From assembly GCA_039809385.1 (NCBI GenBank), contig JBDHUY010000019.1, forward strand, positions 1 to 28,326: DNA of 28,326 bases. The letters are read 5' to 3'. The notes beneath the pieces were generated by a model. It was not told the origin of the DNA, did no database searches, and worked only from the letters and a program-made list of their open reading frames with translations. Position numbers and translations under genes: made by a program. Origin of the DNA: Candidatus Altimarinota bacterium (GTDB lineage Bacteria; Patescibacteriota; Gracilibacteria; JBDHUY01). Positions 155 to 17,036 of the stretch are shown here, piece after piece. Position 1 is the stretch's first letter. Each line of letters opens with the position of its first letter.

Positions 155-961
155 TTATCTCCCGCGTTGTACCAATAAACTGCCCCCGAAAATCAATAAC
201 GAAATCACTACGATGCTTCCGCCGCTGGCCAGATCGAGGTAGTAAGAGGCGAATAGCCCGGCGACCACTGCGATTACCGAGAGAATAATTGCAAGGATCA
301 TGGTTCCCTTAAACCCCCGTTTAAACTGCATAGCGGTTATGACCGGAATGACCATGAGCGCGCCCACCAGGAGTGTTCCGACCACTCGGGTCGCGAGTGA
401 AACGGTGATCGCTGACAACAAGACCAGTACGAAATTTAATCGTTCGGCTTTGATGCCGCTGGCAATAGCCACCTCTTCATCCGCCGATACCATAAACAGC
501 TTGTTATACAGGAGCACAATACATGCGACGATTAATGTACCGCTAAGTGCCGTGATCCAAATGTCGGACCACGAGACAGTAGTGATAGAACCGAATAAAT
601 AGCTGAACAGATTCACATTTACTCCTTTGATCCAGGAGACCAGTAAGATAGCCAAAGCTAAGCTTCCCGACAAAAATAACGCCAAGACCGATTCGCCAAA
701 GAGTTTTTTACGAGTGCGCAAATATTCTATCCCCGCCCCGGCCAAAATTGCTGCCGCAATTGCTGTAATAAACGGATAGATCCGTGTAACCAAGCCGATC
801 GCGACTCCCAGCAGCGATACGTGTGCCAGGGTATCGGCCATCAACGAATAGCGTCGTACCACCAGAAATATACCGATCAAAGGTGCTACCACCGCGATAA
901 TCAGGCCTGCGATGAAGGCCCGGATCATGAAATCGAATGTAAAAATTTCCAACATAATCAA
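155..961 (-). CDS. znuB: Zn/Mn ABC transporter permease (ABC-3 family)
   Basis: 268-aa hydrophobic ORF with ABC-3 motifs 'LVVRRYSLMADTLAHVSLLG', 'SYLFGSI', 'DEEVAIASGI' and 'VGTLLVGALMVIP'. Same locus as znuA and znuC. Confidence 0.95.
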   Translation of the reverse strand: MIMLEIFTFDFMIRAFIAGLIIAVVAPLIGIFLVVRRYSLMADTLAHVSLLGVAIGLVTRIYPFITAIAAAILAGAGIEYLRTRKKLFGESVLALFLSGSLALAILLVSWIKGVNVNLFSYLFGSITTVSWSDIWITALSGTLIVACIVLLYNKLFMVSADEEVAIASGIKAERLNFVLVLLSAITVSLATRVVGTLLVGALMVIPVITAMQFKRGFKGTMILAIILSVIAVVAGLFASYYLDLASGGSIVVISLLIFGGSLLVQRGR

Positions 962-997
962 ACGTTCAAAGTGTAAAGGCAGATTCTTCCCCGCGGA

Positions 998-1027
998 GCA
1001 GATTCTTTGCTATCGCTCAGAATGGAC
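998..1027. repeat. Degenerate REP-like element (GATTCTTCGCTACGCTCAGAATGAC type)
   Basis: gcagattctttgctatcgctcagaatggac closely matches the copy at 10552-10579. The 10-mer gcagattctt is also duplicated at 979-988. Confidence 0.75.
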
Positions 1028-1028
1028 A

Positions 1029-1055
1029 GTAGCAGCAGACCCGTGTGTCTGCTGC
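1029..1055. repeat. GTAG-type REP-like hairpin
   Basis: GTAG overlapping the start of a perfect 9-bp stem: GCAGCAGAC-CCGTGT-GTCTGCTGC. Confidence 0.65.
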
Positions 1056-1208
1056 CCCGGAAAATCCGTTAACTACCAGGGATTAATGAGAAGTTCAAAA
1101 GGTTAAAGGTCCTATAATGTAGTTCAGCGAGAAGAAACTTTTCCGGGAGTAATGCGTAAAGATTTTAATATCGTAGCTTTAGACTATTCGCTGTATAAGC
1201 AATTCTCC

Positions 1209-2450
1209 TCACTCCCTTCTCCCACCCCCGTTCTCCAGCAGCTTTCTTTCCCGTTTCTTTGGGAGTGTCTGCTGCATGGTGCGAAATTTATCGGCTTCCA
1301 TATTGCCCCAGTACCAGGCGGCCAAAGCGGTGGTAATAGGCACTGCCAGCAAAAGGGCGGAACTTCCTACCAGAGTCCGTACGATCTCTTCGGCGATAAA
1401 TTCCCCATTTAAAATCACCCACAACGGCTGGGTCGAATTGATCGAAAATAATAAGAATAAGGGGAGGGACGCTCCGGCATAGGCCAGGGCCAGAGTATTG
1501 ATCAGCGAAGCGATATGCTCTTTGCCGATCTTGAGTCCGCGTCGGTAGAGTTCCGTCCATCCAAAAGAAGGACTGGCATCTTTGAGCTCAAAAATAGCCG
1601 CGCTTTGGGCGCTGGTGATATCGTCCAGAATTCCCAGCGTTCCGATGATCATACCGCTTAACAATAGTCCGCGTAAATCGATTTTGTCGAACGAGCCCAA
1701 TTGCAGAAAAAACGATTCTTCCGACCCCAGACCGAACAGCTTACTCCATGAAACAAACCATAAAGCCAGGATAATCGCCGTAGCAAGTGTGGCAAACGTA
1801 CTTACTACCGCCACGGTGGTTTTGCGGCTGATCCCGTGTGCCAGATACATGGAAACTAAAATGATAAGAATGGCACCGGCAAACGTTATCAGAAGGGGAT
1901 TTTGCCCATCTACCAGATTGGGAATGATGAACTGCGCCAGAACCAGAATACTGAACCCTAAGCCCAGAATCGAATTGAAGCCATGCCAGCGTCCGAAGAA
2001 GACCGCCACGCCGAAGAAAATTGCCAGGATCCACAGGATTGCCGGCAGGCGGTAAGGGTCCATAATGTAGTAGGGATTTTTCAACTCCGGATTATATCCC
2101 AGGACTACCGTTTCGCCCTCCTTGAGGTACTGCGAAGCTTCCAGCGAAGCTCCGCCGTATTCCAGACGGATGAGTTCGCCTTTCCTGTCTCCTTCTCCTA
2201 ACTTTATTTGTAGAATCTGATATTTTTGTTTTTGGCCGAAAATGTCGCGCTCGCCTTTTTCCAGTACATGCAGAACCTCTCCGGTCAAATAGGTATCGGG
2301 TTGGTCGGACATGGCGGTAGCTGTTTTAGCCGGACTGTCCGCATTGGTATTGCTATTTTCGTTTGCTGTCTGCGCATTTGTAGTAATGGGCAGAAAAAGC
2401 AGAGTGCAAAGCAGGAACAGACTTAGAATAAATCCTTTTTTCATATCCAA
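1209..2450 (-). CDS. YibE/F family membrane protein
   Basis: N-terminal signal/anchor, beta-rich extracellular region, multiple TM helices, and the family motifs 'GILDDITSAQSAAIFEL', 'HIASLINTLALAYAGASLP' and 'EEIVRTLVGS'. The start may be the ATG at 2444. Confidence 0.9.
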   Translation of the reverse strand: MDMKKGFILSLFLLCTLLFLPITTNAQTANENSNTNADSPAKTATAMSDQPDTYLTGEVLHVLEKGERDIFGQKQKYQILQIKLGEGDRKGELIRLEYGGASLEASQYLKEGETVVLGYNPELKNPYYIMDPYRLPAILWILAIFFGVAVFFGRWHGFNSILGLGFSILVLAQFIIPNLVDGQNPLLITFAGAILIILVSMYLAHGISRKTTVAVVSTFATLATAIILALWFVSWSKLFGLGSEESFFLQLGSFDKIDLRGLLLSGMIIGTLGILDDITSAQSAAIFELKDASPSFGWTELYRRGLKIGKEHIASLINTLALAYAGASLPLFLLFSINSTQPLWVILNGEFIAEEIVRTLVGSSALLLAVPITTALAAWYWGNMEADKFRTMQQTLPKKRERKLLENGGGRRE

Positions 2451-2462
2451 AGAACGTAAAGT

Positions 2463-3239
2463 TTAGCGGTCGTGGTGGTGAATAAATTTCATTTTTTTAC
2501 CGTAGAGTTCTTCCAGCGCGTTGCTCTGAAAAAAGTCCTCGGCGCTGCTGTGTGACACAAGCCGGCGATTCAAGCACAAAACCGATTCGACTTCTTTGGC
2601 GATCACGTCGACATCGTGCGAGACAAATACGATTGTCAGACCGATATCGCAATGCAACTGATCCAGAAAACGATAAAATTCTTCTTGAGAATGTATGTCG
2701 ACTCCCGTGGTCGGTTCGTCCAGGATCAGAACTTCCGGTTTTGTGGCCAATGCTCTGGCGATGAATACCCGTTGTTGTTCGCCTCCCGACAGATCGGATA
2801 CCCGTTTGTGCCGCAGAGGCAGGATATTGGTAATCTCCATCGCTTTTTCAACCGCCTCCCGATCTTCCCGGGTTTGCCTGTGCCAGAACGGGATATGACT
2901 TTTACGAGCTCCCCGTACAATCTCTTCCACCGACGCCGGGAAACCATTATACGCTGTGGCGCTTTTTTGCGGAACATACCCGATCTTTTGTTGGTCCCGG
3001 AATTGGTTTATCGAAACCCCGAATAGGTTAATATTTCCTTCGGTAAGGGGGATCAATCCCAGAATCAGCCGAAGCAGCGTGGTCTTGCCACCGCCGTTAG
3101 GGCCGATCAAACCTACATAGGCACCCGCTTCGATTTGAAAATTAAGATCTTCCAGTACCACTTTACCCTCGGTACGGTAAGAAACATGTTGGGCTTCGAT
3201 AATGGGATTTTTTTTTGGTGCAGTATGTTCCACGGGCAA
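2463..3239 (-). CDS. znuC: Zn/Mn ABC transporter ATP-binding protein
   Basis: Walker A GPNGGGKTT, 'IGYVPQ', signature LSGGEQQRV, Walker B ILDEPTTGVD, H-loop VSHD and a His-rich C-terminus. Confidence 0.95.
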   Translation of the reverse strand: MPVEHTAPKKNPIIEAQHVSYRTEGKVVLEDLNFQIEAGAYVGLIGPNGGGKTTLLRLILGLIPLTEGNINLFGVSINQFRDQQKIGYVPQKSATAYNGFPASVEEIVRGARKSHIPFWHRQTREDREAVEKAMEITNILPLRHKRVSDLSGGEQQRVFIARALATKPEVLILDEPTTGVDIHSQEEFYRFLDQLHCDIGLTIVFVSHDVDVIAKEVESVLCLNRRLVSHSSAEDFFQSNALEELYGKKMKFIHHHDR

Positions 3240-3308
3240 GAAAGATACTAACTAAAAACATGGAAACATAATAGATCAAACGTCATTCGCCCCTGTGCGC
3301 AAATGAGA

Positions 3309-3449
3309 GTTCAAGTTCAAACGTCAAAGCTCAATCCGCCGCGGTAGACAAAGTAGGTCCAAATATCAGATAACAAAAAATATGTATGAAGCTGTTGGGG
3401 GTTGGATAATGGGTTTTTTTTGGCATTGAGATTTTGAACTTTGGCATTC
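3309..3449. repeat. Degenerate heptamer tracts in inverted orientation
   Basis: gttcaa gttcaaa cgtcaaa gctcaat (3309-3335) faces tttggca ttgaga ttttgaa ctttggca (3419-3449). Confidence 0.55.
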
Positions 3450-3480
3450 TGTGGGGATGTTACCTCTTTAGTATGATATT

Positions 3481-4464
3481 TTAGCTTGGATCGCACTCTA
3501 ACGCTTTTTGTAAGGTTTTCAGGTTTTCCCGCATAATCGTGAAATACGTCTTGCCCTCTGCTTGTTCTGCCGGTGTCAGTCCTTCCAGCGGATTAAATAC
3601 GATGGTTTGAGTACCAGTTTCACTGGCGAGTGTTTCAGCCAGTTTGGGGCTTACCAGTGATTCCATCAGAATATACTTGATGTTGTTCCTGCGGGCAAGC
3701 AGGGTGAGACTGGCCAGGGTTTTGGGGCTTGGCTCGCCCTCGGGTGAAAGACCGCTGATACTTTCGACTGTAAGATTATAACGAGCGGCCAGATAATTGA
3801 AAGCGGCGTGTGAGCTGATTACCGTAGTTTGACGGCACGCAGAGAGGGATGCTCTGTAGGCCGCATCCAGTTCGGCTAGCGCTGTTTGTACCTTCTCCCG
3901 GTTGGACGCGTAAACGGAAGCGTTTTGCGGATCTTTCTCTTTCAAGGCCCGTTCCACTAAGGTAACTTGCTGTTTCATGAGAACCGGATCGAGCCAGATA
4001 TGCGGATCGGTCGTATGTTCGTCGCTTTCGTGTTCTTCTTCCGCTTCGCCTTCTTCGTGCTCATCGTGTCCCGCTCCTTCACGCAGCGTAACGCCTTCGC
4101 TTATTTTTACGATGCCGATGCCCCTTTCTTGCAGCTCCGGAGCTAGCTTTTCGGCCCACGGATCCAGTCCAGCTCCTAGATAAACGAGGATGTCGCTCGC
4201 ATATATCTTTTGAATATCTTGCGGTGTGGGCTCATAGTCGTGTGGTTCTATGCCATTGGGTACGATCGAAGTCACGGTAACAGCACTGCCGCCGATTTCC
4301 TGTGCCAAGAATTCCAGCGGGTAAAAACTGGCCACAATGTTGATCTTTTTGGATACAGTAGCATTCTCGTTTGGTCCGGCTATTGTATTTCCCGGTTTTT
4401 GTTGACACCCGGTGAGCAGGGTGAGGCAGGCCAGAATGGTAAAGGAAAGTGTTTTCGTTTTCAT
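3481..4464 (-). CDS. znuA: Zinc ABC transporter substrate-binding lipoprotein
   Basis: Lipobox LLTGC, 'EPHDYEPTP', His/Glu-rich loop 'GHDEHEEGEAEEEHESDEH', 'DPHIWLDP' and 'SHAAFNYLA'. The His-rich loop points to Zn rather than Mn. Confidence 0.95.
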   Translation of the reverse strand: MKTKTLSFTILACLTLLTGCQQKPGNTIAGPNENATVSKKINIVASFYPLEFLAQEIGGSAVTVTSIVPNGIEPHDYEPTPQDIQKIYASDILVYLGAGLDPWAEKLAPELQERGIGIVKISEGVTLREGAGHDEHEEGEAEEEHESDEHTTDPHIWLDPVLMKQQVTLVERALKEKDPQNASVYASNREKVQTALAELDAAYRASLSACRQTTVISSHAAFNYLAARYNLTVESISGLSPEGEPSPKTLASLTLLARRNNIKYILMESLVSPKLAETLASETGTQTIVFNPLEGLTPAEQAEGKTYFTIMRENLKTLQKALECDPS

Positions 4465-4536
4465 ATGAGTAGGGAAGTGAAAGTATCTAGTATTTGTCGT
4501 AATAAAATAGCGAGCCGATGGCTCTAAGCTGTTAGC

Positions 4537-4962
4537 TTATTGGCATTTGCGACACAGGCCGAAAAATTCGAGAGAGTGGCGCTGGATTTTAAACTTTTTT
4601 TCTTTCTGGATGCGTTTTTCTTCGTGAGTTAAATCGTTCGACAACTCTACATCTTCAACTTTTTCGCAGCTGATACAGATCAAGTGATGGTGGTGATCTT
4701 CTCCTACAAGCTCGTAGCGTTTTTTGTCTTCGCCCAAGTAGATACTTTTGACCATGTTCTGGCTTTGCAGAAATTCGATTTCGCGGTATACAGTGGTTTT
4801 ATTGACGATAATACCTGCTTCTTTGAGGCGTTCGATCAGCTCGGGAACAGCCAGAGGTTTCTCATTATGTGCTAGTATTTTCAGCATGGCGGAGCGAACT
4901 TTGGTGATACGATGGCCTCTGCTTCGCAAGAATTCGATAATCTGAACGGCAGTATAGTTCAT
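4537..4962 (-). CDS. zur: Fur-family transcriptional repressor, most likely Zur
   Basis: 'RITKVR', 'TTVYR', 'HHHHLICISC' and C-terminal 'GLCRKC' (two CxxC). Directly upstream of znuA. The start at 4962 (MNYT) is preferred over 4983 because of the promoter position. Confidence 0.85.
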   Translation of the reverse strand: MNYTAVQIIEFLRSRGHRITKVRSAMLKILAHNEKPLAVPELIERLKEAGIIVNKTTVYREIEFLQSQNMVKSIYLGEDKKRYELVGEDHHHHLICISCEKVEDVELSNDLTHEEKRIQKEKKFKIQRHSLEFFGLCRKCQ

Positions 4963-4988
4963 ATAAATCCATGATAGAAACATCTTTA

Positions 4989-5017
4989 TGTTTACGCAAA
5001 TAAGTTGCGGATGTCAA
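4989..5017 (-). promoter_or_regulatory. Putative sigma70 promoter with operator palindrome upstream of zur-znuA
   Basis: Minus strand reads TTGACA-TC-CGCAACTTATTTGCG-TAAACA: perfect -35, weak -10, with the imperfect palindrome CGCAA-N5-TTGCG in the spacer. Confidence 0.65.
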
Positions 5018-6699
5018 AGATTTTTTGTTTCATTGTTCTCAAATTCTTGCAGCAGTTTTTGCCAGGCCTCTTTGTATGAGTTGTTTCGTGAAGCATGATG
5101 GATCATCTGTGTTGCCATTCTAATACTATCAACTACTGCTGAGTGTCTATCCAATGAGTTCTTCTCAGTAGCTAGACAACCGCGTAAAAGAGATCCAGCA
5201 TTCTTGCCCGGGAGGGGCCATTGTTCCAGATCGATCATAATAGAAGGGTCAATCTGGAGTTCTTTTTGGGCGCAGGCCATAAATCCTGTATACATCATAT
5301 TTATCCCTTCTAGTACGCACCCCAAAACATCTGTTTTGAGTAATGCTATGTCAGTTTTTTCATCTAGATTTTTGCGCTCTTCTACCAAAATGCGGGAAGC
5401 GTGTTTCCCTAAAATAAACAACCAGGAACCGATCTCCTCATTTTTATACGAGCTATCGTTATTGGGATTCATAAATCCGCGAACAGCTTTGATCGACTCC
5501 AATAACCATTGAGTATAGATGCTTACTGCTTCTATGCGAACATTTTCTGGAACATTTTTGCGTAAGGCTAGTGTCAAGAGAATAAAGGCATCACAGCGCA
5601 GTTGTGGTTTTCCATCAGCTTTTATAGGAGGTGTGCTTTTTAAAATTGCTGACCATCGCTCTATAGAGGCAGTAGTCCTTGCAGGATCGGTATTAGCTTT
5701 GAGGAGGTATCGTTTCCCCTCTTCTACTTGATTGGGATCGTCCGTATGGATGAGCAAGACGTGGCAATCAGTTACCGTTTCGAGACCCAAGGAAAAACTG
5801 CCCCAAACCCAGTCAAAATCACGCCGTTTTCCTAATTGATCTATACAGACACCTTTTGCTCGTCGAATGGGAAATTCTGTGCTGTTAAGCGCTTTCAATA
5901 TTTGCTCTGAGGTTATACCTTCAGGGAATAAGAGAGTTTCAGTATAGGAAGTATGGATTCTGTTGTGATCAACGGTAGCCTGGCCCAACATTGCTCCCCT
6001 CTCATCATTTTTCTTTTTTCGTCCTAAAGAAACGAACGGAGCAGGAGACCTAACAAATACTGGTTGGGTAATTTTTTCTCTTGCCATTCTTATAATTTCA
6101 TCTACATTATTTGGATTGTTATGATCAAAAAATAATACAGGCGTATCATTGTTGGTCAGATTTGTTATTCTTTCCATGAATGCTTCTTTAATCCCTGCTA
6201 TAGAATCTCCTCTAGTAACTACAGCCATTTGAGCATGACGTAATTGTGAGGGGAGTAGTCCGTCACATATATCTAGCTCAAAATCTCGTGCATTGACCAT
6301 GGCTATGATACAATAACGAACACCAGCGATGGACAAAGCAACCGGGAGTTCATCTCCGTCTATCCCTCCTGATGGTTCGATGACGAGAGCGGTAGTTCCA
6401 CTTTTTTGGGCTATTTCTGCGATGGCAATAAGTTGATCCAAACTACTACAAGCAATACATCCGCTGGTAATCGTTTCTACAGGGACCCCGCTCTGTTCTT
6501 CAATGCGTTTTTTATCTGGATTCACAGCTCCGAAATCGTTCACTATGACCTTTGGCCGTTGACCATTGGGAAGTTGCCGGAGCAAATGATTTATTATAGT
6601 CGTTTTTCCTGCGCCAAAAGGACCAGTAACGACATAGGCGGTAACCCCACTCTCCCTACTTTGCTCTGCTGCGACATCTGAGGTAGCAGTTGTATTCAT
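5014..6699 (-). CDS. COG0523/CobW-family P-loop GTPase (metallochaperone) with long C-terminal extension
   Basis: 'TGPFGAGKTT', 'IVNDFG', 'GCIACS', 'IEPSG' and CobW_C-like 'IRRAKG', followed by about 230 aa of unrecognised helical sequence. Confidence 0.88.
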   Translation of the reverse strand: MNTTATSDVAAEQSRESGVTAYVVTGPFGAGKTTIINHLLRQLPNGQRPKVIVNDFGAVNPDKKRIEEQSGVPVETITSGCIACSSLDQLIAIAEIAQKSGTTALVIEPSGGIDGDELPVALSIAGVRYCIIAMVNARDFELDICDGLLPSQLRHAQMAVVTRGDSIAGIKEAFMERITNLTNNDTPVLFFDHNNPNNVDEIIRMAREKITQPVFVRSPAPFVSLGRKKKNDERGAMLGQATVDHNRIHTSYTETLLFPEGITSEQILKALNSTEFPIRRAKGVCIDQLGKRRDFDWVWGSFSLGLETVTDCHVLLIHTDDPNQVEEGKRYLLKANTDPARTTASIERWSAILKSTPPIKADGKPQLRCDAFILLTLALRKNVPENVRIEAVSIYTQWLLESIKAVRGFMNPNNDSSYKNEEIGSWLFILGKHASRILVEERKNLDEKTDIALLKTDVLGCVLEGINMMYTGFMACAQKELQIDPSIMIDLEQWPLPGKNAGSLLRGCLATEKNSLDRHSAVVDSIRMATQMIHHASRNNSYKEAWQKLLQEFENNETKNL

Positions 6700-6741
6700 A
6701 AGAAAATAATAAAAAGATATAATGTACCTGTTCCAAATAAT

Positions 6742-7827
6742 TTATAGTCCAGCTATTACTTCGCTGATTGTCGGGTACGCAATGCACATGGTATAATTCT
6801 GTTCTTCAGGTGAAAAGTTGTGCTCCCCACTCCCTTGCTGATCTAAGTAAAATTCGAACTTGCTGGGAATGACAATGACTTTCGCAGTATTTGGTCCGTC
6901 CATTTCGTTTAATGCCTTTATGGCAGCTACATCCGTAGGTAAGTCGCCAAAATAGAGGATAGTTTCCCCTGCTGGAATTGCTGCTCGAAACTGATGTAAT
7001 CGCGGCTTCCCACCAAGTACTGGATCGGCTGGAAAGATGCTGTCTGCAGACAGCATAGTTTCTCCGATAAAATCATGACGGGACAACAATGGAATCAGAC
7101 TGTCCTGAGAACGATTGCTGATAAGGCCAAATCCTTTGTTCTGTTTTTTACAGAATTTATTAAGTGCTCCTACAAGCTCTCTGGCTCCTACAAGCTCTTG
7201 TACTTGGGGCTCGAAGATTAGTAGATAGATGGCTAAATAAGCTTCAAACACAAATCGGGAAGTAATGCCGTTTTTTACATATCGTTCTCCAGAAATAGGT
7301 GATATATCTCCTGTTCTTCCGTTCAGCGCATATTCTTGCACATTCTGTTGAAGAATATGGATCAGCTCCTCGATTTTTTTCATATTTGTATTGCTCTTGT
7401 GGGGTGTATACTCTTGAACAAGCTTTTCAAACCGCTCGTACGCTTGTGGCAAATCGATTGGGCTAAACGGCAGAAAAGCTCCTCCGTACGCTCTAGAACT
7501 CATTCGAAAAATATCTTTTTCACTGATATGGGCAACGTCGCCTATGTCGTAGACGCCTTGTCGAAGTATTTTTAGAGATTCTGAAGCGACAAAAGGAACT
7601 CGTTGAAAAACACTAGAATTCTGCGAATAAAAGTTTTCTAAATTGTATAAAACATCAATCTTTTTAACTTCAGATACTTCAACATCGAAAACATGACGAA
7701 GTGTAAAGATGGCCGCATCGTTCATCTTTTCGGTATTGTCGAACAGAAATCCATCGTTGTCCAAGAAAATGTGTTGCTGTGATACTAGCCAATTCTTTAA
7801 TTTTTGAGCTGTGGTATTGTTCTTCAT
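6742..7827 (-). CDS. HAD-superfamily hydrolase with large cap insertion
   Basis: Motif I 'IFLDNDGFLFD', motif II 'LISNR', motif III 'GKP' and motif IV 'YFGDLPTDV'. The start overlaps the upstream stop (ATGA, 7824-7827). Confidence 0.8.
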   Translation of the reverse strand: MKNNTTAQKLKNWLVSQQHIFLDNDGFLFDNTEKMNDAAIFTLRHVFDVEVSEVKKIDVLYNLENFYSQNSSVFQRVPFVASESLKILRQGVYDIGDVAHISEKDIFRMSSRAYGGAFLPFSPIDLPQAYERFEKLVQEYTPHKSNTNMKKIEELIHILQQNVQEYALNGRTGDISPISGERYVKNGITSRFVFEAYLAIYLLIFEPQVQELVGARELVGALNKFCKKQNKGFGLISNRSQDSLIPLLSRHDFIGETMLSADSIFPADPVLGGKPRLHQFRAAIPAGETILYFGDLPTDVAAIKALNEMDGPNTAKVIVIPSKFEFYLDQQGSGEHNFSPEEQNYTMCIAYPTISEVIAGL

Positions 7828-8777
7828 GAATTATGTATTGCCAGTTGGGATAAATTTTTCTGGAAATATCTTGGTATGATTAGCGGCTTTTCGTAAGGTT
7901 TTATTCTTACCTTTCCGTTATGTTCTTGGAAATAGCAAGTTCCTCGTGAGGCTGATATCTCGATACCAGAATCGACCGGATAAATACATAATCGTGGCGT
8001 ACAAGTCTTGTGGGCATGCTGAGTTACTTGCCAGCCCCACTCCGGGTGTATGCCTTTACTTCTATGTATCTCGAAATGCGCTCTTGCTAGAAGCAGGTTT
8101 TCAAATTCTGATAACGTTCTGTCAGGAAAACATCGCAGAAATCTTTTTAGCAGGCTCTGTATCTGTGGCTGAGAAAGAATACTGTATGGGTTCATGTTTT
8201 CTATTTCTTTTCTGAACTTGTCTATCAGGCATTGTTTTTGTAAGGTTCTATCTTCCAGCCAGTCCATGATTGACACATTTTTAAGCATGGATTTACGCAG
8301 AATCATTCTGCAGTTTTGGCGATACTGTTCGATCTCAGCGAAGTTTATCAGTCCTCCTAGACTGAAGATACTTCCGTCAGAGATGACCCGGAAACGAAGG
8401 CCTGGTTTGTATAACACGGTCGATACCTTGCTAATCAAGTTCAGGTTCAAAAACATCAGCTGTTCTGACAGGTCAGGTTTGGTGATATCTGCACCTGTTT
8501 TGAAGGGAAGGTCGTAAAAAAATAATGAAAGCGGTTTATCAGCTTTTACCATGGGTTCGGCCCATTCACAGAACTGCTTTTCCACCAATAACTTTGCGGA
8601 GGATGACATACCATTTGGTCTGCGAATTTGCGTTGATTGTAAAAAACTCCAGATCACACGAACCGTTTCTTGTGCTGTAGTCATGGGTTTCTTCTTGCAA
8701 TCATGAGCATATTCAGCTAAACGTCGCTCTTTTTGACAGAGCCAAATAGTTAAAAACACATTCTCTTGGTGATACAT
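7824..8777 (-). CDS. Divergent PvcA/Dit1 (L-Tyr/L-Trp isonitrile synthase)-like protein
   Basis: Ordered motifs 'LPFKT', 'KPDLSE', 'YKPGLRFRVISDGSIFS' and 'YRQ' parallel the PvcA/Dit1 pattern FPxKS..LPDxAE..YPPG..CSDGxVF. The C-terminal motifs are poorly conserved. Alternative start at 8684. Confidence 0.65.
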   Translation of the reverse strand: MYHQENVFLTIWLCQKERRLAEYAHDCKKKPMTTAQETVRVIWSFLQSTQIRRPNGMSSSAKLLVEKQFCEWAEPMVKADKPLSLFFYDLPFKTGADITKPDLSEQLMFLNLNLISKVSTVLYKPGLRFRVISDGSIFSLGGLINFAEIEQYRQNCRMILRKSMLKNVSIMDWLEDRTLQKQCLIDKFRKEIENMNPYSILSQPQIQSLLKRFLRCFPDRTLSEFENLLLARAHFEIHRSKGIHPEWGWQVTQHAHKTCTPRLCIYPVDSGIEISASRGTCYFQEHNGKVRIKPYEKPLIIPRYFQKNLSQLAIHNS

Positions 8778-8786
8778 AGGAAAAAA

Positions 8787-9737
8787 TTATTCCGGAATAT
8801 AGTTTGGATCAATCTGATCTTCTAATCCTGGACGATAGGTGCGTTTCCAGGAATCTTTGCTACTGAGTTTTGTGTGCAACATAAGCAGAGCTTCGTAGCG
8901 GACTTGCAGAGATTCTTTTCGTTGTTGCCCCAGATGAAATATTGCTTCAAATGCCGAGGTGTCAGCGACCTCCAAATCCAATAATCCTAGTGGTTTATTT
9001 GCTAGTCTTTTTGCCATTATTCGATCAGATTCACTGATAATAGCGATTGGCTCTAGCGGAAATTCACTTTTTACGAAGTTTAATTGCTGGCCACTCCGTA
9101 TTTGGTTTATGAGCAGGCTTATATGTTTTTCCCTCCCACTTTGTTTTGCCAAATCATAAAATTGACGAAAAACATTTAAGCTTTCTCGGTCGGGTTTTGC
9201 CACAAATACTAGGAGATCCTGAAAGAATAATGTATTACCAAAATGATCTACTCCCGCGCTGGAGTCTATTATTACTGCCTCGGTTTCTTTTATTTTAGAA
9301 AACCAGAGAATATTCTCCGCCACTGCCTGTGGTCCATGGTGGCAGCTCTGGCCTACGGCATTTGGCAAATAACTACCGGTTGCCATCATAAACAAATTTG
9401 GACGAACTTCTACGGCAAAATTATGTATAACGTAATTCTCCGTTGATATTTCAAGAAAGTTCGACCCACTTCCAGGTGGCGTTGTTTTGATAAATTCATC
9501 TAAGCTAATATGCGGGTTAGTCCCTTTAAAGTACTTACGAATGTTGTAACTATTTTCTCCATAGTTCATTTTTCTCTCTTCCGGGAATTGAATGTCAAAT
9601 AGCTGATCTATATGGCAGTTCACATCAACATCTAGTAAGAGCGTTGGTATCTTTTGTGTCTCTACCAAATACTGTGAAAATAGTGCTGACACTGTGCTTT
9701 TTCCCGCTCCGCCTTTGCCGACAAAAGCAATACGCAT
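8787..9737 (-). CDS. CooC/MinD-ParA-family ATPase (deviant Walker A), resembling the actinobacterial CooC-like subfamily
   Basis: 'MRIAFVGKGGAGKST', 'LDVDVN', 'KTTPPG', 'GQSCHH', 'IDSSAG' and terminal 'QIDP'. Confidence 0.85.
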   Translation of the reverse strand: MRIAFVGKGGAGKSTVSALFSQYLVETQKIPTLLLDVDVNCHIDQLFDIQFPEERKMNYGENSYNIRKYFKGTNPHISLDEFIKTTPPGSGSNFLEISTENYVIHNFAVEVRPNLFMMATGSYLPNAVGQSCHHGPQAVAENILWFSKIKETEAVIIDSSAGVDHFGNTLFFQDLLVFVAKPDRESLNVFRQFYDLAKQSGREKHISLLINQIRSGQQLNFVKSEFPLEPIAIISESDRIMAKRLANKPLGLLDLEVADTSAFEAIFHLGQQRKESLQVRYEALLMLHTKLSSKDSWKRTYRPGLEDQIDPNYIPE

Positions 9738-9749
9738 AGTACATGATTA

Positions 9750-9766
9750 ACGCAAGTAAGTTGCGT
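9750..9766. promoter_or_regulatory. Operator-like palindrome (putative Zur box) just upstream of the ATPase start
   Basis: ACGCAA-GTAAG-TTGCGT, 15/16 identical to 4994-5009. Confidence 0.7.
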
Positions 9767-9771
9767 CTACG

Positions 9772-9800
9772 AATATATGCAACCTAGTTGCATATGTCAA
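9772..9800 (-). promoter_or_regulatory. Sigma70 promoter with perfect operator palindrome in the spacer
   Basis: Minus strand TTGACA(9800-9795)-N17-TATATT(9777-9772). The perfect inverted repeat ATATGCAAC-CTA-GTTGCATAT lies at 9775-9795. Confidence 0.8.
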
Positions 9801-9826
9801 TGCGTTTATGAAAAAAACCGGGCTGC

Positions 9827-9855
9827 TTGAATCTTGGCTGGTTCTTTACTATCAT
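9827..9855 (+). promoter_or_regulatory. Putative sigma70 promoter of ahpC
   Basis: TTGAAT-N17-TATCAT. Confidence 0.6.
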
Positions 9856-9886
9856 AAGCATATCTTACTTCTTTCTCTGTAGCACT

Positions 9887-10516
9887 ATGCACGACGAAGC
9901 GTTGATGATGTCTGCTTTCCCTCAGGTTGAGCACGAAGTCCCGGATTTTACGTTTAAGGTGTATGATCCCAAAACTCAGGAATCAACTCTTAAGCACCTA
10001 AACGATTATCGTGGGCGCTGGGTGGTGCTGTTTTTTTATCCGGCCGATTTTACGTTTGTCTGTCCGACCGAACTCAAGGATCTGCAAAAACTCGAGGCCG
10101 AATTTGCGAAACTCGAAAATACCGAGCTGCTGGTGGTCAGTAAAGACACGGTACACAGCCACAAAGTGTGGCTGGAAGTGGAAAAGATGCTCGCCGGTTT
10201 TCCCTATCCGATGGTTTCGGATCGCAAAAGCGAACTGTCGGAGTACTTCGGTATTCATAATGCCGAGACCGGAAATTCTGAGCGCGGCACGTTTATCATT
10301 GACCCTGCCGGCAATCTCAAGTCGATCGAAATAGTCACCGAAAATATCGGGCGTTCGGCCAAGGAGTTGTTGCGCAAACTCCACGCGCTGCACTTTATCG
10401 CCGAACATCCGGGTATGGCCTGTCCGGCCAGCTGGAATGACGATATGGTGGCGCTGCGTCCCGATGTCAAAACAGCCGGGAATGTCGAGGGAGCGCAAGA
10501 AGCGGTCTCTGTGTAG
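9887..10516 (+). CDS. ahpC: 2-Cys peroxiredoxin (AhpC/Prx1)
   Basis: 'FYPADFTFVCPTE' with the peroxidatic Cys, 'RGTFIIDP', 'GRS' and resolving 'CPASW'. The true start is ATG 9887, 9905 or 9908. Confidence 0.95.
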   Translation: MHDEALMMSAFPQVEHEVPDFTFKVYDPKTQESTLKHLNDYRGRWVVLFFYPADFTFVCPTELKDLQKLEAEFAKLENTELLVVSKDTVHSHKVWLEVEKMLAGFPYPMVSDRKSELSEYFGIHNAETGNSERGTFIIDPAGNLKSIEIVTENIGRSAKELLRKLHALHFIAEHPGMACPASWNDDMVALRPDVKTAGNVEGAQEAVSV

Positions 10517-10704: not shown

Positions 10705-11691
10705 ATGCCGCGTATTCTGCACTGCTCACGATTTACTCCTGCTGTCTTTTCATACCGTACCGTCTTTTTGTACTTGGATGAAGGTTCCTTTGGCGAGAGT
10801 GTTCCGGTACAATCCGATAGTCCGGAGCCCAAAAATGAGATTGCCAATAAGAAATTGGAAGAGCAAAAGACCGAGCAAGAAACGGAAGGGCTTTTGTCCA
10901 GTTTGTATAATCAGGTGAGGCAGAGTGATACCTTCAAGCCGTATTTTGAGGCGATCGAATCGGCGTTGAGTTTTATTCAAAACAATACCTACGATGTTCA
11001 GGAGGGGGATACGTTGTGGCAGATTATGCAGGATAAATGTCCCGGGATTACCCCTGATCAGCTGGTAGCGGCTTTTCAGGTTATGAAAAAAGACAAATTC
11101 AATCCGAATCGTATTTATGCCGACCGCGATTTGATCGGGATTACGCGCGCGCCGGACGGTAAAATCGTTTTTCAGCTCGTGCACAAAGGGCGCAACCGTA
11201 AAGGCGAGACTGTTTTTAAGCCGTACCAGATGACGATCAATTTGTCGGATCAGGCCAGTCAGCAACCTGCGGTTGTCCCCAAGAAACCAAAACGGGGAGT
11301 TGTTTCAAGATATTCTGACGGTTCTTTCAGACCTTCCAATCAGATCAATCGTCCGGAAACTATCAAACAGCCTGACCCTCGTGCCCAGGAGACGGAGCGT
11401 CAGAAACAAGAAGCGGAGAAGATACGCGCCGATTTTACGTCCCCTGAAATTACGTTTCTTCAGAATAATACTAAAGGAATTCTGGGACGTATCAGTACGG
11501 CCCAACTGGATACTTCTTTCTCTGACGCTACGGGTGATTTCAAAATGTGGATCAATGGCAAAGAATTAGTGGTACGCGGAACCGAGCTTACGGGGCAGCG
11601 CGGACAAGCTCAAAAGACTTGGGAATTTTACGAAAAACTGAAAAAGTACGAGAAAGATCTTACCAAAGTGCTGAATATTCTTAAACAATAG
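10705..11691 (+). CDS. LysM-like domain-containing protein
   Basis: 'YDVQEGDTLWQI ... NPNRIYA.D.I' resembles LysM. The remainder is charged or low-complexity, with no classical signal peptide. Confidence 0.65.
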   Translation: MPRILHCSRFTPAVFSYRTVFLYLDEGSFGESVPVQSDSPEPKNEIANKKLEEQKTEQETEGLLSSLYNQVRQSDTFKPYFEAIESALSFIQNNTYDVQEGDTLWQIMQDKCPGITPDQLVAAFQVMKKDKFNPNRIYADRDLIGITRAPDGKIVFQLVHKGRNRKGETVFKPYQMTINLSDQASQQPAVVPKKPKRGVVSRYSDGSFRPSNQINRPETIKQPDPRAQETERQKQEAEKIRADFTSPEITFLQNNTKGILGRISTAQLDTSFSDATGDFKMWINGKELVVRGTELTGQRGQAQKTWEFYEKLKKYEKDLTKVLNILKQ

Positions 11692-11702: not shown

Positions 11703-14651
11703 ATGGCCGAGGTGGTGAAAAATGGAGAACCAGACAAGGTGAGTCCTCTCAAAAAGTTATCGCGGTTCGCTCTGCCGGCCGCGTTGATTGTTACCGGTAT
11801 GGCTGGCCTGATGGCGGATAAAGTAAAAGCTCTTTTGCCCGGTACCTTTGGCGAGGATCATGAGAAAAAAGCTGCCGTGGTAGCAAAGGAGAAACGCTAT
11901 GGAACCTTTGAGGAATGGATTTCTCAGAAGCATACCAGCCTGCCGCTGACTTTTTTCGATTATATGGATTCCAAAGAAGATACAAACAAAAAAACGGCTA
12001 CTTTTTTTCTCCGGGATGAGAAAGACGTCAATTTGATGTTTCAACTGTTGCCCGAACTGCCCCAAGTGGCCGAGTTTGAGGGCGGCGTTGCGATTCGGAC
12101 CGAAGGTGAGGCCGAGAAGTATTTTAATCGGCTGCTTCTTGGTAACGAAAAAGATAAAGTGGCAGAAAATGTAACTCGCCTGACCCAGGTTACGAGTCGT
12201 TCGGGTACGATGGTGCGAAATACCGGTGGCGAAACGCGTGTTCTCAGAAAGAAGAACGGCGATATCCTTTTTACAATCGGCGAAATTCTGTTTCTGCTGG
12301 TTGGTGGAGGTACCGGTATTCTAAATATCAGAAAAGCCAAACAAGAAGATTTGACCGAACCTACCAGTTCTCCGCCTGCCCCTCCCACTATTTCTGGACC
12401 ACCCCTTCCACCGCCCGAAAAGGCGATCGAACATCCGCTTCTGGCTGAGGTACAGAGAATCACCGATCCCTTGCAGAAAAAAGTTCTGCTCGAGGATTTT
12501 ATTCCGTCTGGGTATGATTTTACGATCGAGGTCGATCAGGATGGAAAATTACGGGAACTGGACGTCACCGTTCCGGCCAATCGAAAGTTCTATAATTTCT
12601 TGCGTTTCCGCGATCTGCGAAAACTCGTCGTCAAAAATACTCCCGAAGTGCATGCCGGCGGCCCCGAATTAGAGGTGCTGGAGGTCCCCGACAGTAAGAT
12701 ACTGCATCTCAATAGTTTCCGCGATAAAATGCGTACCTTAAAAACGAAAGCGGCAGTTAATCTTGTCCAACTTCCGAATCTTCGGCATGTCTGGCTTTTT
12801 AAAGAGCTGGCACTGGGAAATCGAATTTTTCCAGCCGATAAATACCTGGATTTTGAGCAACACACACTGGTAAAGAATAATTTCGATTATAAAGAAGGAG
12901 GGTTGGTTCCAACCAAATATAAGACCCCTGTTCGTGGTACGGCCGCGTTGTCTGATCCTTTCGCAGTAACCAGTAATATTTCGGCCAATCCCGAGTATGA
13001 AAAGTTGCCTGACTGGTTGAAAACCGTCATTGTCCAGGATCGAATACTGCCTTTGCAGTATAGTATCTCCAGCATGAACCATCTGGTTCGATCCGTTCAC
13101 CCGGGTGACGAACTTCTGTTTATGGATGGATCCAGATTTTTAGTTACCGATATCGTGCGGGACGATTCTTTTGATTTGGATCGATTAGTCTTTTGCGGTA
13201 GTTTCACCGATGCATCGGGAAAAACCGTACACCAAACGGTTTTGACTAATCTGAACGATAGCGAAAAGGATATGGCGAACTTTCAACTTCATCATGCCCA
13301 AGGTCTCTATAAAACCGGTTTGGTGCTTAATCCAGCAGCTTCGGAAATAACATCGACACCTCAATTTCCTACCGGTACCTACCATACCGGGGCCTTGAAA
13401 CTTCCCTCTCTCGATATTCCAGATGAGCAGCGCAAAGAAACGATAGAAACATTTATTCCTCAGGGAGATCAAGAATATGCGTATTCCGTGACAGTCGATG
13501 GAAAAGAAAATCCCGTTCAAGCTGCCTATCGTCATCATGATCTGAACCAAGTTCGCCGGGAAATGATCGATGCGCGACTTCTGGCTTTGGGAGATGATCA
13601 TGCGAGTGGTTTGAAACTGATGGAGACAATGATTTTAGGCGAGTTTATCACTATGCCTTCCGATAAGGCTCGCGAGTTCATTGCTCTCTATAATGAAATG
13701 GTCAACGAAATGCCGGGCAAATTTACCAAACTGATTTCCGATTTTTCTTGGAAAGAGAAGTTTATTCCAAAGTATGAGCGTTTGCTCGAGCTAATCGGGA
13801 CAATCGACTGGATCGGAGAGGATCGGCATATGCTTCTGATTGGCGACCTTCTCTCGGATCGCGGACTCTATGACGGTATCATACTTGCGATTATCGATAC
13901 AATCCGCAAGAGAGCAAAAGCAAAAGGCTTTCACGGTCCTGTAACGATTCTTGCATCCAACCATGATTATGATTTTATCGTCTCGAAGTTTCATCCCGAC
14001 AGAACAATAGATTCGGCTCAGGCAATCTCTCATTTTCGTATGGCTATGATCGAGAGTGAAGATTCGATTTTAGAGACTATGACACGTTACTATGACAACA
14101 TGGATCTTTTACATTACGATGTCGGGAGTAAGATGCTTTTTTCTCACGGAGCTATCACCAAAGACAGTATTAGACGTTTGCAGGAAGCCATGGGCTTTCG
14201 CGAGCCTATTACCGAGAAGAATCTGCTTGATTTTATTGAACAAGCCAATACCTGGTTTCGTACCTTTACTAAAAAACTTCTAAGCGCGATGACGACGTTT
14301 ACGAATGATATGACCCAGAATAAAGAGATTGTTCGAAAAAACTTTTATCCGGAGTATGAAATCTTGGAAATGCTATTATCCCATTTTCTATGGGCGGGGC
14401 GCACCGAAGGAACACCCGGTATCGATGTTCCTCACTATACCAATCAAAATATTCCTTTGTCCGAAGCGGGAGTACGGGGGCTAGTGCATGGTCATGACCT
14501 GAAGGATCGGGGTACTAATATAAACGGCTACCGTATTGTAAATCTAGATAATATTGGGAGAAAAGGGCGTAGTAATGCCCAACAAGAGCTGGTTGATCCC
14601 ACTCGTGCCAATCTATCGGAGCCATTATTTGCTATTCCAAAGGCAGCCTGA
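11703..14651 (+). CDS. Large membrane-anchored protein with C-terminal calcineurin-like metallophosphatase (WipA/WipB-like)
   Basis: Two hydrophobic segments, a Pro-rich linker and an LRR-like stretch, then GDDH, GDLLSDRG, SNHD, SHG, HGHD and NLDN motifs. Confidence 0.75.
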   Translation: MAEVVKNGEPDKVSPLKKLSRFALPAALIVTGMAGLMADKVKALLPGTFGEDHEKKAAVVAKEKRYGTFEEWISQKHTSLPLTFFDYMDSKEDTNKKTATFFLRDEKDVNLMFQLLPELPQVAEFEGGVAIRTEGEAEKYFNRLLLGNEKDKVAENVTRLTQVTSRSGTMVRNTGGETRVLRKKNGDILFTIGEILFLLVGGGTGILNIRKAKQEDLTEPTSSPPAPPTISGPPLPPPEKAIEHPLLAEVQRITDPLQKKVLLEDFIPSGYDFTIEVDQDGKLRELDVTVPANRKFYNFLRFRDLRKLVVKNTPEVHAGGPELEVLEVPDSKILHLNSFRDKMRTLKTKAAVNLVQLPNLRHVWLFKELALGNRIFPADKYLDFEQHTLVKNNFDYKEGGLVPTKYKTPVRGTAALSDPFAVTSNISANPEYEKLPDWLKTVIVQDRILPLQYSISSMNHLVRSVHPGDELLFMDGSRFLVTDIVRDDSFDLDRLVFCGSFTDASGKTVHQTVLTNLNDSEKDMANFQLHHAQGLYKTGLVLNPAASEITSTPQFPTGTYHTGALKLPSLDIPDEQRKETIETFIPQGDQEYAYSVTVDGKENPVQAAYRHHDLNQVRREMIDARLLALGDDHASGLKLMETMILGEFITMPSDKAREFIALYNEMVNEMPGKFTKLISDFSWKEKFIPKYERLLELIGTIDWIGEDRHMLLIGDLLSDRGLYDGIILAIIDTIRKRAKAKGFHGPVTILASNHDYDFIVSKFHPDRTIDSAQAISHFRMAMIESEDSILETMTRYYDNMDLLHYDVGSKMLFSHGAITKDSIRRLQEAMGFREPITEKNLLDFIEQANTWFRTFTKKLLSAMTTFTNDMTQNKEIVRKNFYPEYEILEMLLSHFLWAGRTEGTPGIDVPHYTNQNIPLSEAGVRGLVHGHDLKDRGTNINGYRIVNLDNIGRKGRSNAQQELVDPTRANLSEPLFAIPKAA

Positions 14652-15161: not shown

Positions 15162-15238
15162 GATCAAAACTCAAAGGTTAAAAGTCAAAACCATAAGCTT
15201 CCATAGCTTTGACGTTTGAACTTTCACTTTTGACTTTC
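15162..15238. repeat. Inverted heptamer tracts between convergent genes (possible bidirectional terminator)
   Basis: gatcaaa actcaaa ggttaaa agtcaaa faces tttgacg tttgaac tttcact tttgact. Confidence 0.6.
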
Positions 15239-17005: not shown

Positions 17006-17036
17006 ACAATGTTGTCAACGTTGGGTAGGAGGACAT

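Follow-up and report, generated by a model that had tools for sequence, protein, structure and literature searches.

Nine co-directional minus-strand genes (W1 to W9, spanning 155-9737 in the ORF list of the window, the 28,326-nt stretch of DNA analyzed here) make up, in the explanation that we tentatively prefer, a zinc-starvation operon that combines a zinc importer, two putative metal-handling NTPases, and an enzyme pair whose product serves zinc acquisition or mobilization. If so, a rare pair of enzymes, one with an isonitrile-synthase fold and the other a phosphatase, may help a small-genome bacterium to obtain or handle zinc.

The four genes upstream of zur-znu are tightly packed: a 9-bp gap lies between W1 and W2, W2 and W3 overlap by 4 nt (ATGA), 42 bp lie between W3 and W4, and a further 30 bp separate W4 from zur (W5). 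An earlier, sequence-only reading had described this co-directional packing, and its spacings are reproduced in the ORF coordinates. It had also named the products as a CooC-like ATPase, a PvcA/IsnA-type protein, a HAD protein and a COG0523 GTPase, and these four identities were upheld by profile, motif, and structure comparisons (Table 1). Public runs from two studies contain 100% identical contigs that span the zur/W4, W4-W3-W2, and W2/W1 junctions.

Table 1. Genes, promoters, and operators of the locus (positions in the window)
Feature	Position	Strand	Basis
W1, CooC/MinD-type P-loop ATPase	8787..9737	-	Pfam CbiA; PDB CooC match
W2, divergent DIT1/PvcA/IsnA-family protein, isonitrile-synthase fold	7824..8777	-	PF05141, PDB phmmer, Foldseek
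W3, HAD-superfamily phosphatase-like protein	6742..7827	-	motifs; HAD_2 in relatives
W4, COG0523-type GTPase with private C-terminal domain	5014..6699	-	cobW 79.9 bits; ortholog alignment
W5, Fur-family repressor, Zur by context	4537..4983	-	PF01475 88.7 bits
W6, ZnuA/AdcA-type zinc-binding lipoprotein	3481..4464	-	Pfam ZnuA 285 bits
W7, ZnuC-type ABC ATPase	2463..3239	-	ABC_tran
W8, YibE/F-family membrane protein	1209..2450	-	PF07907 (YibE_F) 236.7 bits
W9, ZnuB/AztB-type permease	155..961	-	ABC-3
Promoter P1, TTGACA-17-TATATT	9772..9800	-	region's best sigma-70-like match, 11/12
Operator 1, TGCAACCTAGTTGCA, TGCAAC-N3-GTTGCA-type palindrome in P1 spacer	9778..9792	.	sequence and genome pattern scan
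Operator 2, CGCAACTTACTTGCG, between -10 hexamer and W1 start	9751..9765	.	sequence and genome pattern scan
Putative internal promoter P2, TTGACA-17-TAAACA	4989..5017	-	inferred from sequence
Operator 3, CGCAACTTATTTGCG, in P2 spacer before zur	4995..5009	.	sequence and genome pattern scan

A 15-nt palindrome, YGCAA-N5-TTGCR, is common to P1 and P2, which bears out the earlier proposal that the W1 and zur promoters share an operator. P2, whose -35 hexamer overlaps the stop codon of W4, was not listed by the promoter scan because its -10 is weak. The refined pattern YGCAACTTANTTGCR has three matches at 0-1 mismatch in the 1.87-Mb genome, all at P1 and P2; it was built from these same sites, and independent support comes from its recurrence in other genomes. 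There, W1-type or Fur-family genes have an exact match within 60 bp of their ends in 6 of 12 loci, and a one-mismatch match within 70 bp in three further loci, so that a box stands at or near the W1 promoter in 9/12; by our own arithmetic, about 0.05 exact matches per 13-kb locus are expected by chance. An exact match, TGCAACTTAGTTGCA, also separates the COG0523 gene of a Parcubacteria locus (L004) from a divergently oriented Fur-family gene, and another immediately precedes a canonical COG0523 gene in L047. This cross-genome comparison gives good support to the predicted control of the operon by a Zur-type repressor.

W5 has the motifs HHHH (97-100) and CxxC (103-106 and 144-147). It matches Fur (E 8e-20) better than PerR (5e-14) or Zur/FurB (4e-13) in the PDB, and its best NCBIfam matches are likewise Fur and PerR, not Zur. 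Of the Zur control proposed earlier, the shared box and the zinc-gene context thus stand, whereas the regulator is nearest Fur and PerR among PDB structures; W5 is Zur by context only, and its sequence alone cannot give it that name. These matches would suit a repressor that senses iron, manganese, nickel, or (PerR-like) peroxide instead of zinc starvation, as would the AhpC peroxiredoxin gene that adjoins P1 divergently (9827-10516). We consider such a signal very unlikely: the 14 other loci checked contain no AhpC gene; in other genomes, this regulator and box adjoin a ZIP transporter (L044), ZnuABC (L051), or cobW with CobW_C (L047); and a different contig of the window's genome carries another Fur-family gene, adjacent to another ZnuA-family binding protein of its own. 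The zinc-type features of W6 also speak against it. Its best PDB matches are the zinc binders YcdH (E 4e-60) and AdcA (E 3e-55), and its sequence shows a His/acid-rich loop (residues 132-150) and His at three ligand positions, the third included; as judged from these features, W6 looks like an ordinary binder of free Zn(II) ions. This context points to an operon that responds to zinc.

The general plan is that of known Zur regulons with COG0523 proteins (ZigA, ZagA/YciC, YeiR type) and ZnuABC: a Fur-family repressor, palindromic promoter boxes, ZnuABC with a His-rich ZnuA, and a COG0523 GTPase in one regulon. The window differs from them in that a CooC-type ATPase is included and W4 is extended by a C-terminal domain and lacks CxCC; its box, TGCAAC-N3-GTTGCA, is, to our knowledge, unfamiliar among described Zur boxes.

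W1 is a CbiA/ParA-type P-loop protein (Pfam, 27 bits) with a Walker A motif GKGGAGKS at residues 7-14. Its closest solved relative is CooC, the nickel-insertion ATPase of CO dehydrogenase (3kje, E 2e-6), with which it shares the deviant Walker A and the position of the metal motif: Cys-His-His (residues 132-134) of W1 aligns with Cys-Tyr-Cys of CooC, and Cys-x-His is invariant in all 12 aligned family members where CooC has Cys-x-Cys. W1 is also about 60 residues longer, has conserved TTPPGxGS and C-terminal QID motifs of its own, and is associated with zinc-transport and Fur-family genes, not with CO dehydrogenase. Members of the W1 family occur in 15/400 other phylum genomes; in 8 of the 11 loci fetched they adjoin a Fur-family gene, and elsewhere other enzymes follow the CooC-like gene. 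The Atlas clusters nearest W1 are named CooC-like (a lead only).

W2 scores just above the cut-off of Pfam DIT1_PvcA (PF05141; 26.6 against 26.4 bits), and phmmer against the PDB gave a match to 9dhm (E 3e-6). Its AF2 model (pLDDT 86.7) retrieved PIsnA and PvcA as the top eight Foldseek hits (E 3.5e-10 to 2e-8, TM 0.53-0.58), so in the predicted structure W2 has the PvcA/IsnA isonitrile-synthase fold that the sequence-only reading had assigned to it. With this family, including the fungal ICS/Dit1 proteins, W2 shares a length of about 315 aa and the N-terminal-half motifs; the family-wide conserved P91, K93, D102, E105, Y123, G126, G135, and Y152 are all kept. Isonitrile chemistry is, however, not assured, because W2 is distant from the solved enzymes (15-18% identity, rmsd 5.7-7.5 Å), its C-terminal half diverges from canonical members, and it reaches 25.6 bits on the PvcA equivalog model against a cut-off of 600 bits. 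Nor was a PvcB/IsnB-type Fe/2-oxoglutarate dioxygenase partner found in the genome of W2, which does encode a ribulose-phosphate 3-epimerase that bears on substrate supply. The partners of W2 are instead a HAD phosphatase and a COG0523 GTPase, under predicted zinc control and in a CPR-like host. The subfamily is very rare: about six close relatives were found among 1.84 billion representatives, and close W2-like proteins in 0/400 phylum genomes.

All four HAD motifs are intact in W3 (DNDG 23-26, ISNRS 236-240, GGKP 272-275, GDLPTD 294-299) and invariant in 8/8 sequences, with an insert of about 190 residues separating motifs I and II. W3 itself gave no Pfam match; HAD_2 was matched by 7/7 of its relatives (best E 8e-8). 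No W3-like protein was found in 400 class genomes. The L004 copy may be decaying, since its HAD-like part is frameshifted and no longer has motif I.

The gene order COG0523-long, PvcA-like, HAD-like is conserved in 4/4 independent loci (the window, L003 [the same as L005], L004, and L006), all from CPR or metagenomic sources. The four-gene cassette described earlier is therefore borne out for W4-W2-W3 and not for W1: as judged by gene order, the conserved unit is these three genes, and W1 appears to be a separate, much wider-spread member of the same regulon. A CPR-like host, also part of that reading, agrees with our failure to find uL30 in the genome, with the size of relatives' genomes (0.7-2.0 Mb), and with homologs in Saccharibacteria and Parcubacteria MAGs.

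The COG0523 GTPase domain of W4 covers residues 21-183. Alignment with the L003 and L004 orthologs delimits a private C-terminal domain of about residues 326-561 (window 5017-5724), which has no Pfam or PDB match and occurs only with W2/W3 (4/4 loci; 0/400 other phylum genomes). The middle part looks CobW_C-like (an Atlas lead only, of fairly high score). CxCC and a His-rich linker, both typical of COG0523 proteins that handle metal, are present in the orthologs; W4 of the window has no such linker, and C-I-A-C stands where CxCC would be. This arrangement, in which the same enzymes always neighbor a COG0523 protein that has a domain of its own, is explained by a chaperone-client relation no less well than by zinc acquisition: W4, perhaps with W1, would be a metallochaperone dedicated to its client, the W2/W3 pair, which either depends on insertion of a scarce metal when zinc is limiting or substitutes for a zinc-dependent step, and makes an ordinary metabolite. 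Consistent with this, W4 is the sole cobW-family gene in the genome, neither an exporter nor a receptor that a secreted molecule would require was seen in the locus, and Zur regulons commonly pair COG0523 proteins with zinc-independent paralogs of zinc enzymes. On the other hand, HADs use Mg(II), we know of no zinc enzymes in the PvcA family or among HAD phosphatases, and we can name no zinc-dependent step for W2/W3 to bypass. Overall we regard this relation as possible but rather unlikely.

The distribution of the triad is very patchy (three CPR lineages or metagenomes, yet 0/400 genomes of the same class), and the GC content is 40-42% across 5-10 kb compared with 45-50% in the flanks. Both would be expected of a horizontally moving cassette that landed in, or came to be co-transcribed with, a zinc regulon and whose product, e.g., an antibiotic-like isonitrile, an envelope molecule, or one directed at a host, is unrelated to zinc; canonical isonitriles are often bioactive. 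We think this improbable, since the link to the regulon recurs independently: the L004 triad comes with a divergently oriented Fur-family gene and with the palindrome of P1 and P2, and in L003 the triad adjoins a YibE/F gene, a family that in L010 and L044 is likewise found close to Fur-family genes. Moreover, every triad includes a COG0523 metal GTPase, and in the window P1 with its boxes is on one side of the triad and zur-znu on the other, with no terminator-like site of note found by a scan of that region.

In the zinc-acquisition reading that we prefer, W5, as Zur, would bind the TGCAAC-N3-GTTGCA-type boxes in P1 and in P2 before its own gene, and zinc scarcity would therefore derepress all nine genes. 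ZnuABC and the YibE/F protein would import Zn(II), and W1 and W4 would handle metal, the W1 dimer offering a Cys/His site where CooC has its Cys-x-Cys nickel site. W2 and W3 would join an amine, most likely an amino acid, to a keto-sugar phosphate such as ribulose-5-phosphate, with W3 removing phosphate from the substrate, an intermediate, or a by-product and W4 tied to the pair through its private domain. The product would be a small N-C1 compound, either an alpha-isonitrile or an N-formyl or keto-alkyl relative, that serves zinc acquisition or mobilization. A single isonitrile is a soft ligand that suits Cu(I) better than Zn(II), which counts against a zinc role. Neither an exporter nor a metallophore-type receptor was found in the locus, and the W2/W3 product is a candidate metallophore at most.

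Biosynthesis genes under zinc control beside uptake genes are also a feature of the staphylopine/pseudopaline (Cnt) and kupyaphore systems; unlike these, the window locus encodes neither an exporter nor a NikA/Opp-type receptor, and it lacks genes of the nicotianamine-synthase-like, opine dehydrogenase, NRPS, and ScoE types. The kupyaphores, isonitrile lipopeptides that act as zinc metallophores in Mycobacterium tuberculosis, illustrate that zinc can be acquired by means of isonitriles (PMC8872721). Fungal ICS-family clusters respond to metal starvation too, but to that of copper, as stated for Aspergillus fumigatus (PMC5974471). A second, distinct CPR subfamily of PvcA-like proteins adjoins a ROK sugar kinase gene in 3/3 loci checked and, in L022, two Cof-type HAD phosphatases.

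Nine closely packed open reading frames, W1 to W9, occupy the minus strand from 9737 down to 155, with predicted promoters before W1 (P1) and before the zur gene W5 (P2). The spacings that a sequence-only reading had given for the first four genes (9 bp, an ATGA overlap and 42 bp) agree with the ORF coordinates. Contigs from public sequencing runs of two studies bridge the zur/W4, W4-W3-W2 and W2/W1 junctions with 100% identity to the window (in X5 and X6 they cover the stretch only in part), so the operon arrangement is not an assembly artefact. None of the runs listed as containing the locus is of RNA. The GC content is 40-42% across W1-W4 (window 5000-10000) but 45-50% for the znu genes and elsewhere in the window, which is compatible with acquisition of that part by transfer. 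The znu part of the operon contains two untypically long gaps, 3240-3480 (241 bp) and 962-1208 (247 bp). A small terminator-like hairpin lies 3' of zur (4512-4524), and a 6-3-6 palindrome, TAAGCT-AAC-AGCTTA, immediately follows the zur stop codon; an Rfam search of the window returned no family.

Operon genes, promoter elements and the PvcA-like genes of a second subfamily
Feature	Position	Strand	Description
P1	9800-9772	-	TTGACA-17-TATATT, 11/12, the region's top promoter match
Palindrome in P1 spacer	9778-9792		Within the 17-nt spacer of P1
Second palindrome	9751-9765		After the -10 hexamer, ahead of the W1 start
Third palindrome	4995-5009		Inside a TTGACA...TAAACA pair (17-nt spacer), 5' of W5
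W1	8787-9737	-	CbiA/ParA-type P-loop ATPase (profile search)
W2	7824-8777	-	DIT1_PvcA, 26.6 bits (cut-off 26.4)
W3	6742-7827	-	No family in profile search of the window protein
W4	5014-6699	-	cobW GTPase domain, residues 21-183 of 561
W5	4537-4983	-	Fur family
W6	3481-4464	-	ZnuA
W7	2463-3239	-	ABC ATPase
W8	1209-2450	-	YibE/F
W9	155-961	-	ABC-3 permease
Second PvcA-like subfamily	L020:1281-2408, L021:1252-2394, L022:8451-9584		Other CPR genomes

The host genome, G000, comprises 1.87 Mb in 26 contigs, is 95% complete and has ~46% GC. No uL30 gene was found in it by a search that was positive in 13 of 14 control genomes, genome sizes in its class range from 0.7 to 2.0 Mb, and relatives of the cassette sit in metagenome-assembled genomes titled Saccharibacteria and Parcubacteria. 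A CPR-like host, though large for CPR, is therefore consistent with the data. Searches for 16S in two of the other genomes, G401 and G402, found none.

We analyzed the palindrome as a candidate Zur-type operator. The loose pattern YGCAA-N5-TTGCR has nine matches in G000, three of them at this locus. A refined pattern, YGCAACTTANTTGCR, gives three genome matches with at most one mismatch, all at this locus, a count that is circular, and 21 two-mismatch matches genome-wide. The TTGACA...TAAACA pair before W5 overlaps the W4 stop codon. Outside G000, the comparison set consisted of 12 loci of other genomes carrying a W1 relative. An exact loose-pattern box lies within 60 bp of the ends of the W1 or Fur-family genes in six of these (L042, L045, L046, L048, L050 and L051), and a one-mismatch box within 70 bp in three further loci (L043, L052 and L010). 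In L047 an exact box stands immediately 5' of a canonical cobW gene with a CobW_C domain; no box was found nearby in L044 or L049. Chance would give ~0.05 exact boxes per 13-kb locus by our own arithmetic, assuming equal base frequencies. The parcubacterial locus L004 also carries an exact box, between divergent Fur-family and COG0523 genes. This comparative evidence is independent of the refined count in G000, and we conclude that the palindrome is the putative operator of a phylum-wide Fur-family regulator.

The metal sensed by W5 is left undecided by its sequence alone. Its PDB matches are Fur (8e-20), PerR (5e-14) and FurB/Zur (4e-13), and every NCBIfam match falls below its cut-off. Gene context does decide, and points to zinc, because of the type of ZnuA encoded, the transport and COG0523 neighbours of the regulator, and a second Fur/ZnuA pair in the same genome. 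W6 is nearest to the zinc binders YcdH and AdcA and has a His/acid-rich loop and His at three ligand positions. Beside this regulator and its box, other genomes have ZnuABC (L051), a ZIP transporter (L044) or COG0523 (L047). Elsewhere in G000 (contig C3:173522-174931), a second Fur-family gene, whose product is 28% identical to W5, adjoins the gene for a further ZnuA-family binding protein (25% identity to W6); this pair is probably a system for another metal. An AhpC/peroxiredoxin gene (window 9827-10516, plus strand) lies divergent from P1, and W5 might accordingly be read as PerR-like, a reading we have downgraded since no AhpC gene occurs in 14 other related loci checked. A Fur-family repressor together with its box in promoters of zinc-uptake genes, as in a Zur regulon, is found here at the level of sequence comparison. 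The operon is very probably a zinc-starvation regulon, an assignment well supported by the comparison.

W1 has a CooC-like core with a deviant Walker A motif (GKGGAGKS, residues 7-14), and its top PDB match is CooC itself (3kje, E 2e-6). At the position aligned with the Cys-x-Cys nickel-binding motif of CooC, W1 has Cys-His-His and 11 relatives have Cys-Tyr/Phe-His, so that Cys-x-His is invariant in all 12 sequences aligned. We found W1 in 16 of 401 phylum genomes, G000 included and no other member of its class. Among the best 11 of 15 neighbourhoods (the weaker G435, G700, G572 and G408, E 5e-14 to 6e-16, were left out), a Fur-family gene directly adjoins W1 in eight; it does so too in L010, which comes from the same Parcubacteria genome as L004. 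Znu, ZIP and COG0523 genes and PLP enzymes were the other neighbours seen in these loci. Directly 3' of W1 stands a PALP (cysteine-synthase-like)-rhodanese fusion in two loci (L042:4662-6122 and L043:7322-8776) and an Orn/DAP/Arg-decarboxylase-like PLP enzyme in another (L047:4354-5814), which suggests a variable enzyme slot 3' of W1 in the box-controlled regulon. Given its Fur-family neighbours and the varied enzymes downstream, W1 looks like a core regulon member that is followed by this slot. A W1 dimer would offer a Cys/His site, and the family would then form a second, unrecognised class of zinc metallochaperone beside COG0523. The W1-like gene of the Parcubacteria genome G402 (L008/L010:8966-9871) contains four in-frame stops, one TGA and three TAG.

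The sequence-only reading treated W1 to W4 as one cassette. Three of the four recur together: the order COG0523-long (W4), PvcA-like (W2), HAD-like (W3) recurs in all four independent loci, namely the window, L003, L004 and L006, and W1 stands apart from this triad. L003, which is 99.9% identical to L005, has YibE/F upstream of the triad; in L004 a divergent Fur-family gene and a box accompany it; and L006 is a 1.5-kb fragment in which the PvcA-like gene is preceded by the C-terminal end of the GTPase and followed by the first part of the HAD-like gene. Near position 11320 of L004 the PvcA-like frame continues into HAD-like sequence that lacks the first 56 residues, motif I among them, and is then frameshifted. 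Decay or mis-assembly may account for this copy, and for that reason we did not count it as a clean fusion. The in-frame stops of G402 and the frameshift reflect either gene decay or error-prone assembly.

W2 passes the PF05141 cut-off marginally (27 bits in a scan of its own genome), with scores of 33.7-57.7 bits for the closely related P0002-P0006 and P0008. A sequence search of the PDB with W2 gave matches over residues 73-267 to the isonitrile synthases 9dhm and 9dh4 (E 3e-6), and also a match to PvcA (3e59). Among 1.84 billion representative proteins only 17, W2 included, matched at E <=1e-3; the close ones comprise five full-length proteins and a fragment, the others being ordinary DIT1_PvcA proteins. 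One protein of 1009 aa with 18 repeated short matches (P0007) was excluded from all alignments, and alignment A5 was built without P0008 and P0011. An AF2 model of W2 from an 18-row alignment reached a pLDDT of 86.7, compared with 35.1 from the single sequence. In a Foldseek search of the PDB its best eight matches were all PIsnA and PvcA chains (9dh4, 9dhm and 3e59; E 3.5e-10 to 2e-8, TM 0.53-0.58), followed by tyrosyl-tRNA synthetases and cyclodipeptide synthases (E ~1e-3, TM ~0.3). The PvcA/Dit1 fold claimed from the sequence is thus borne out by the model and its Foldseek matches. W2 has all of P91, K93, D102, E105, Y123, G126, G135 and Y152, positions that show full or at least 90% conservation across the 18-sequence alignment; its C-terminal half is subfamily-specific. 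The PvcA equivalog NF045653 of NCBIfam gives W2 25.6 bits against a cut-off of 600. Because the predicted fold and the conserved residues are kept and the C-terminal half is peculiar to the subfamily, W2 is, on sequence and model, a true yet distant DIT1_PvcA member and not a PvcA orthologue. In G000 we found a gene for ribulose-phosphate 3-epimerase and none for a PvcB/TauD-type dioxygenase. A word-based homologue search with W2 recovered only the query, and a search of 41 related genomes found it in G000 alone.

The window W3 protein and its seven relatives (46-50% identity) share HAD motifs that are invariant in all eight sequences: DNDG (23-26), ISNRS (236-240), GGKP (272-275) and GDLPTD (294-299), with ~190 residues between motifs I and II. 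HAD_2 is matched by every family member except the window protein (7/8). The W3 profile matched nothing significantly in the PDB, and G000 alone among 401 genomes contained a W3-like protein in a search of the class. W4, the sole cobW-family gene product of G000, has a G3E GTPase domain (PF02492, 79.9 bits). In place of CxCC it has G-C-I-A-C-S at residues 80-85; its orthologues in L003 and L004 read GCICC and GCVCC and possess His-rich linkers that the window protein lacks. Pfam detects no CobW_C in W4, and an Atlas feature search with residues 215-561 returned CobW_C clusters at 0.81-0.82, under the level that counts. All three W4 proteins (window, L003 and L004) share an extra C-terminal domain of ~230 residues that has no Pfam or PDB match and was absent from the 400 other phylum genomes searched; a word-based search with this part of W4 likewise recovered only itself. 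A complex prediction for W2, W3 and the W4 C-terminal domain, run without controls, scored 0.00 (mark 0.32) and carries no weight in either direction.

From family and context, we reasonably infer that W2 and W3 may use a sugar phosphate to form a small N-C1 compound derived from an amine. The weakest link is the proposal that such a compound would serve zinc acquisition, for which the abstracts of two studies offer precedents, one on copper-responsive ICS clusters of Aspergillus fumigatus (PMC5974471) and one on isonitrile lipopeptides of Mycobacterium tuberculosis as zinc metallophores (PMC8872721). Among the nine genes and the scanned neighbours we found no metallophore exporter or metal-ligand receptor, and the ZnuA protein W6 is of the ion-binding type. 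The tight, exclusive link of W2 and W3 to a specialised COG0523 protein would be explained about as well if W4 were the chaperone and W2 and W3 its clients. Under the zincophore reading the triad, present in few lineages, would combine an amino acid with a pentose phosphate into a new, minimal isonitrile-type zincophore. We consider it unlikely that all three propositions hold jointly: a zinc-starvation regulon of CPR's own, a CooC-type Cys/His chaperone class and an isonitrile-type zincophore module.

CPR/Patescibacteria are regarded as making almost nothing of their own, members of the isonitrile-synthase family have been described in antibiotic, pigment and copper-responsive pathways, and few clients of COG0523 proteins are known. 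All components of the operon come from established families, and ICS clusters that respond to metals have been described before. A literature search of main texts, largely from open journals, found no description of the gene set. Nor did we find, in main texts, a paper joining COG0523 with isonitrile, or isocyanide with Patescibacteria; among the papers listed, a title or abstract linking isocyanide synthase to Zur and zinc; a paper on isocyanide synthase, ribulose-5-phosphate and the active site; one for the structures 9DH4/9DHM/9DHN or for PIsnA in the relevant sense; or anything relevant on YibE. If the proposal is true, a conserved metal-controlled enzyme module would be an unexpected CPR investment in trace-metal competition, the triad would give these reduced episymbionts a first biosynthetic capacity of this kind, and a zinc-linked, dioxygenase-free, phosphatase-paired branch would broaden the chemistry of the isonitrile-synthase family. 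The comparison itself yields a candidate CPR-wide Zur box, a CooC-like ATPase family that is Zur-linked and whose Cys-x-His is invariant, and a COG0523 subfamily for which two defined neighbours can be named as candidate clients, which is rare for COG0523.

A second PvcA-like subfamily (375-380 aa) is present in CPR, in 6 of 400 phylum genomes (E 4e-7 to 3e-11). A ROK-family sugar kinase adjoins it in all three loci checked, none of which has zinc genes nearby, and in L022 two Cof-type HAD phosphatases and an M20 peptidase adjoin it as well. Given these ROK and Cof neighbours, sugar-phosphate enzymes are a recurrent partner of the PvcA-like family in CPR. In the remainder of the window, a plus-strand gene (11703-14651) encodes a 982-aa protein whose residues 712-951 match a WipA-like phosphatase domain (E 3.6e-14), and is flanked by two ORFs without a family match (10705-11691 and 14651-15157). 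Five consecutive glycosyltransferase genes on the minus strand (15224-21720; two PMT-type, GT2, GT87 and GtrA+GT2) probably form a surface glycosylation cluster.
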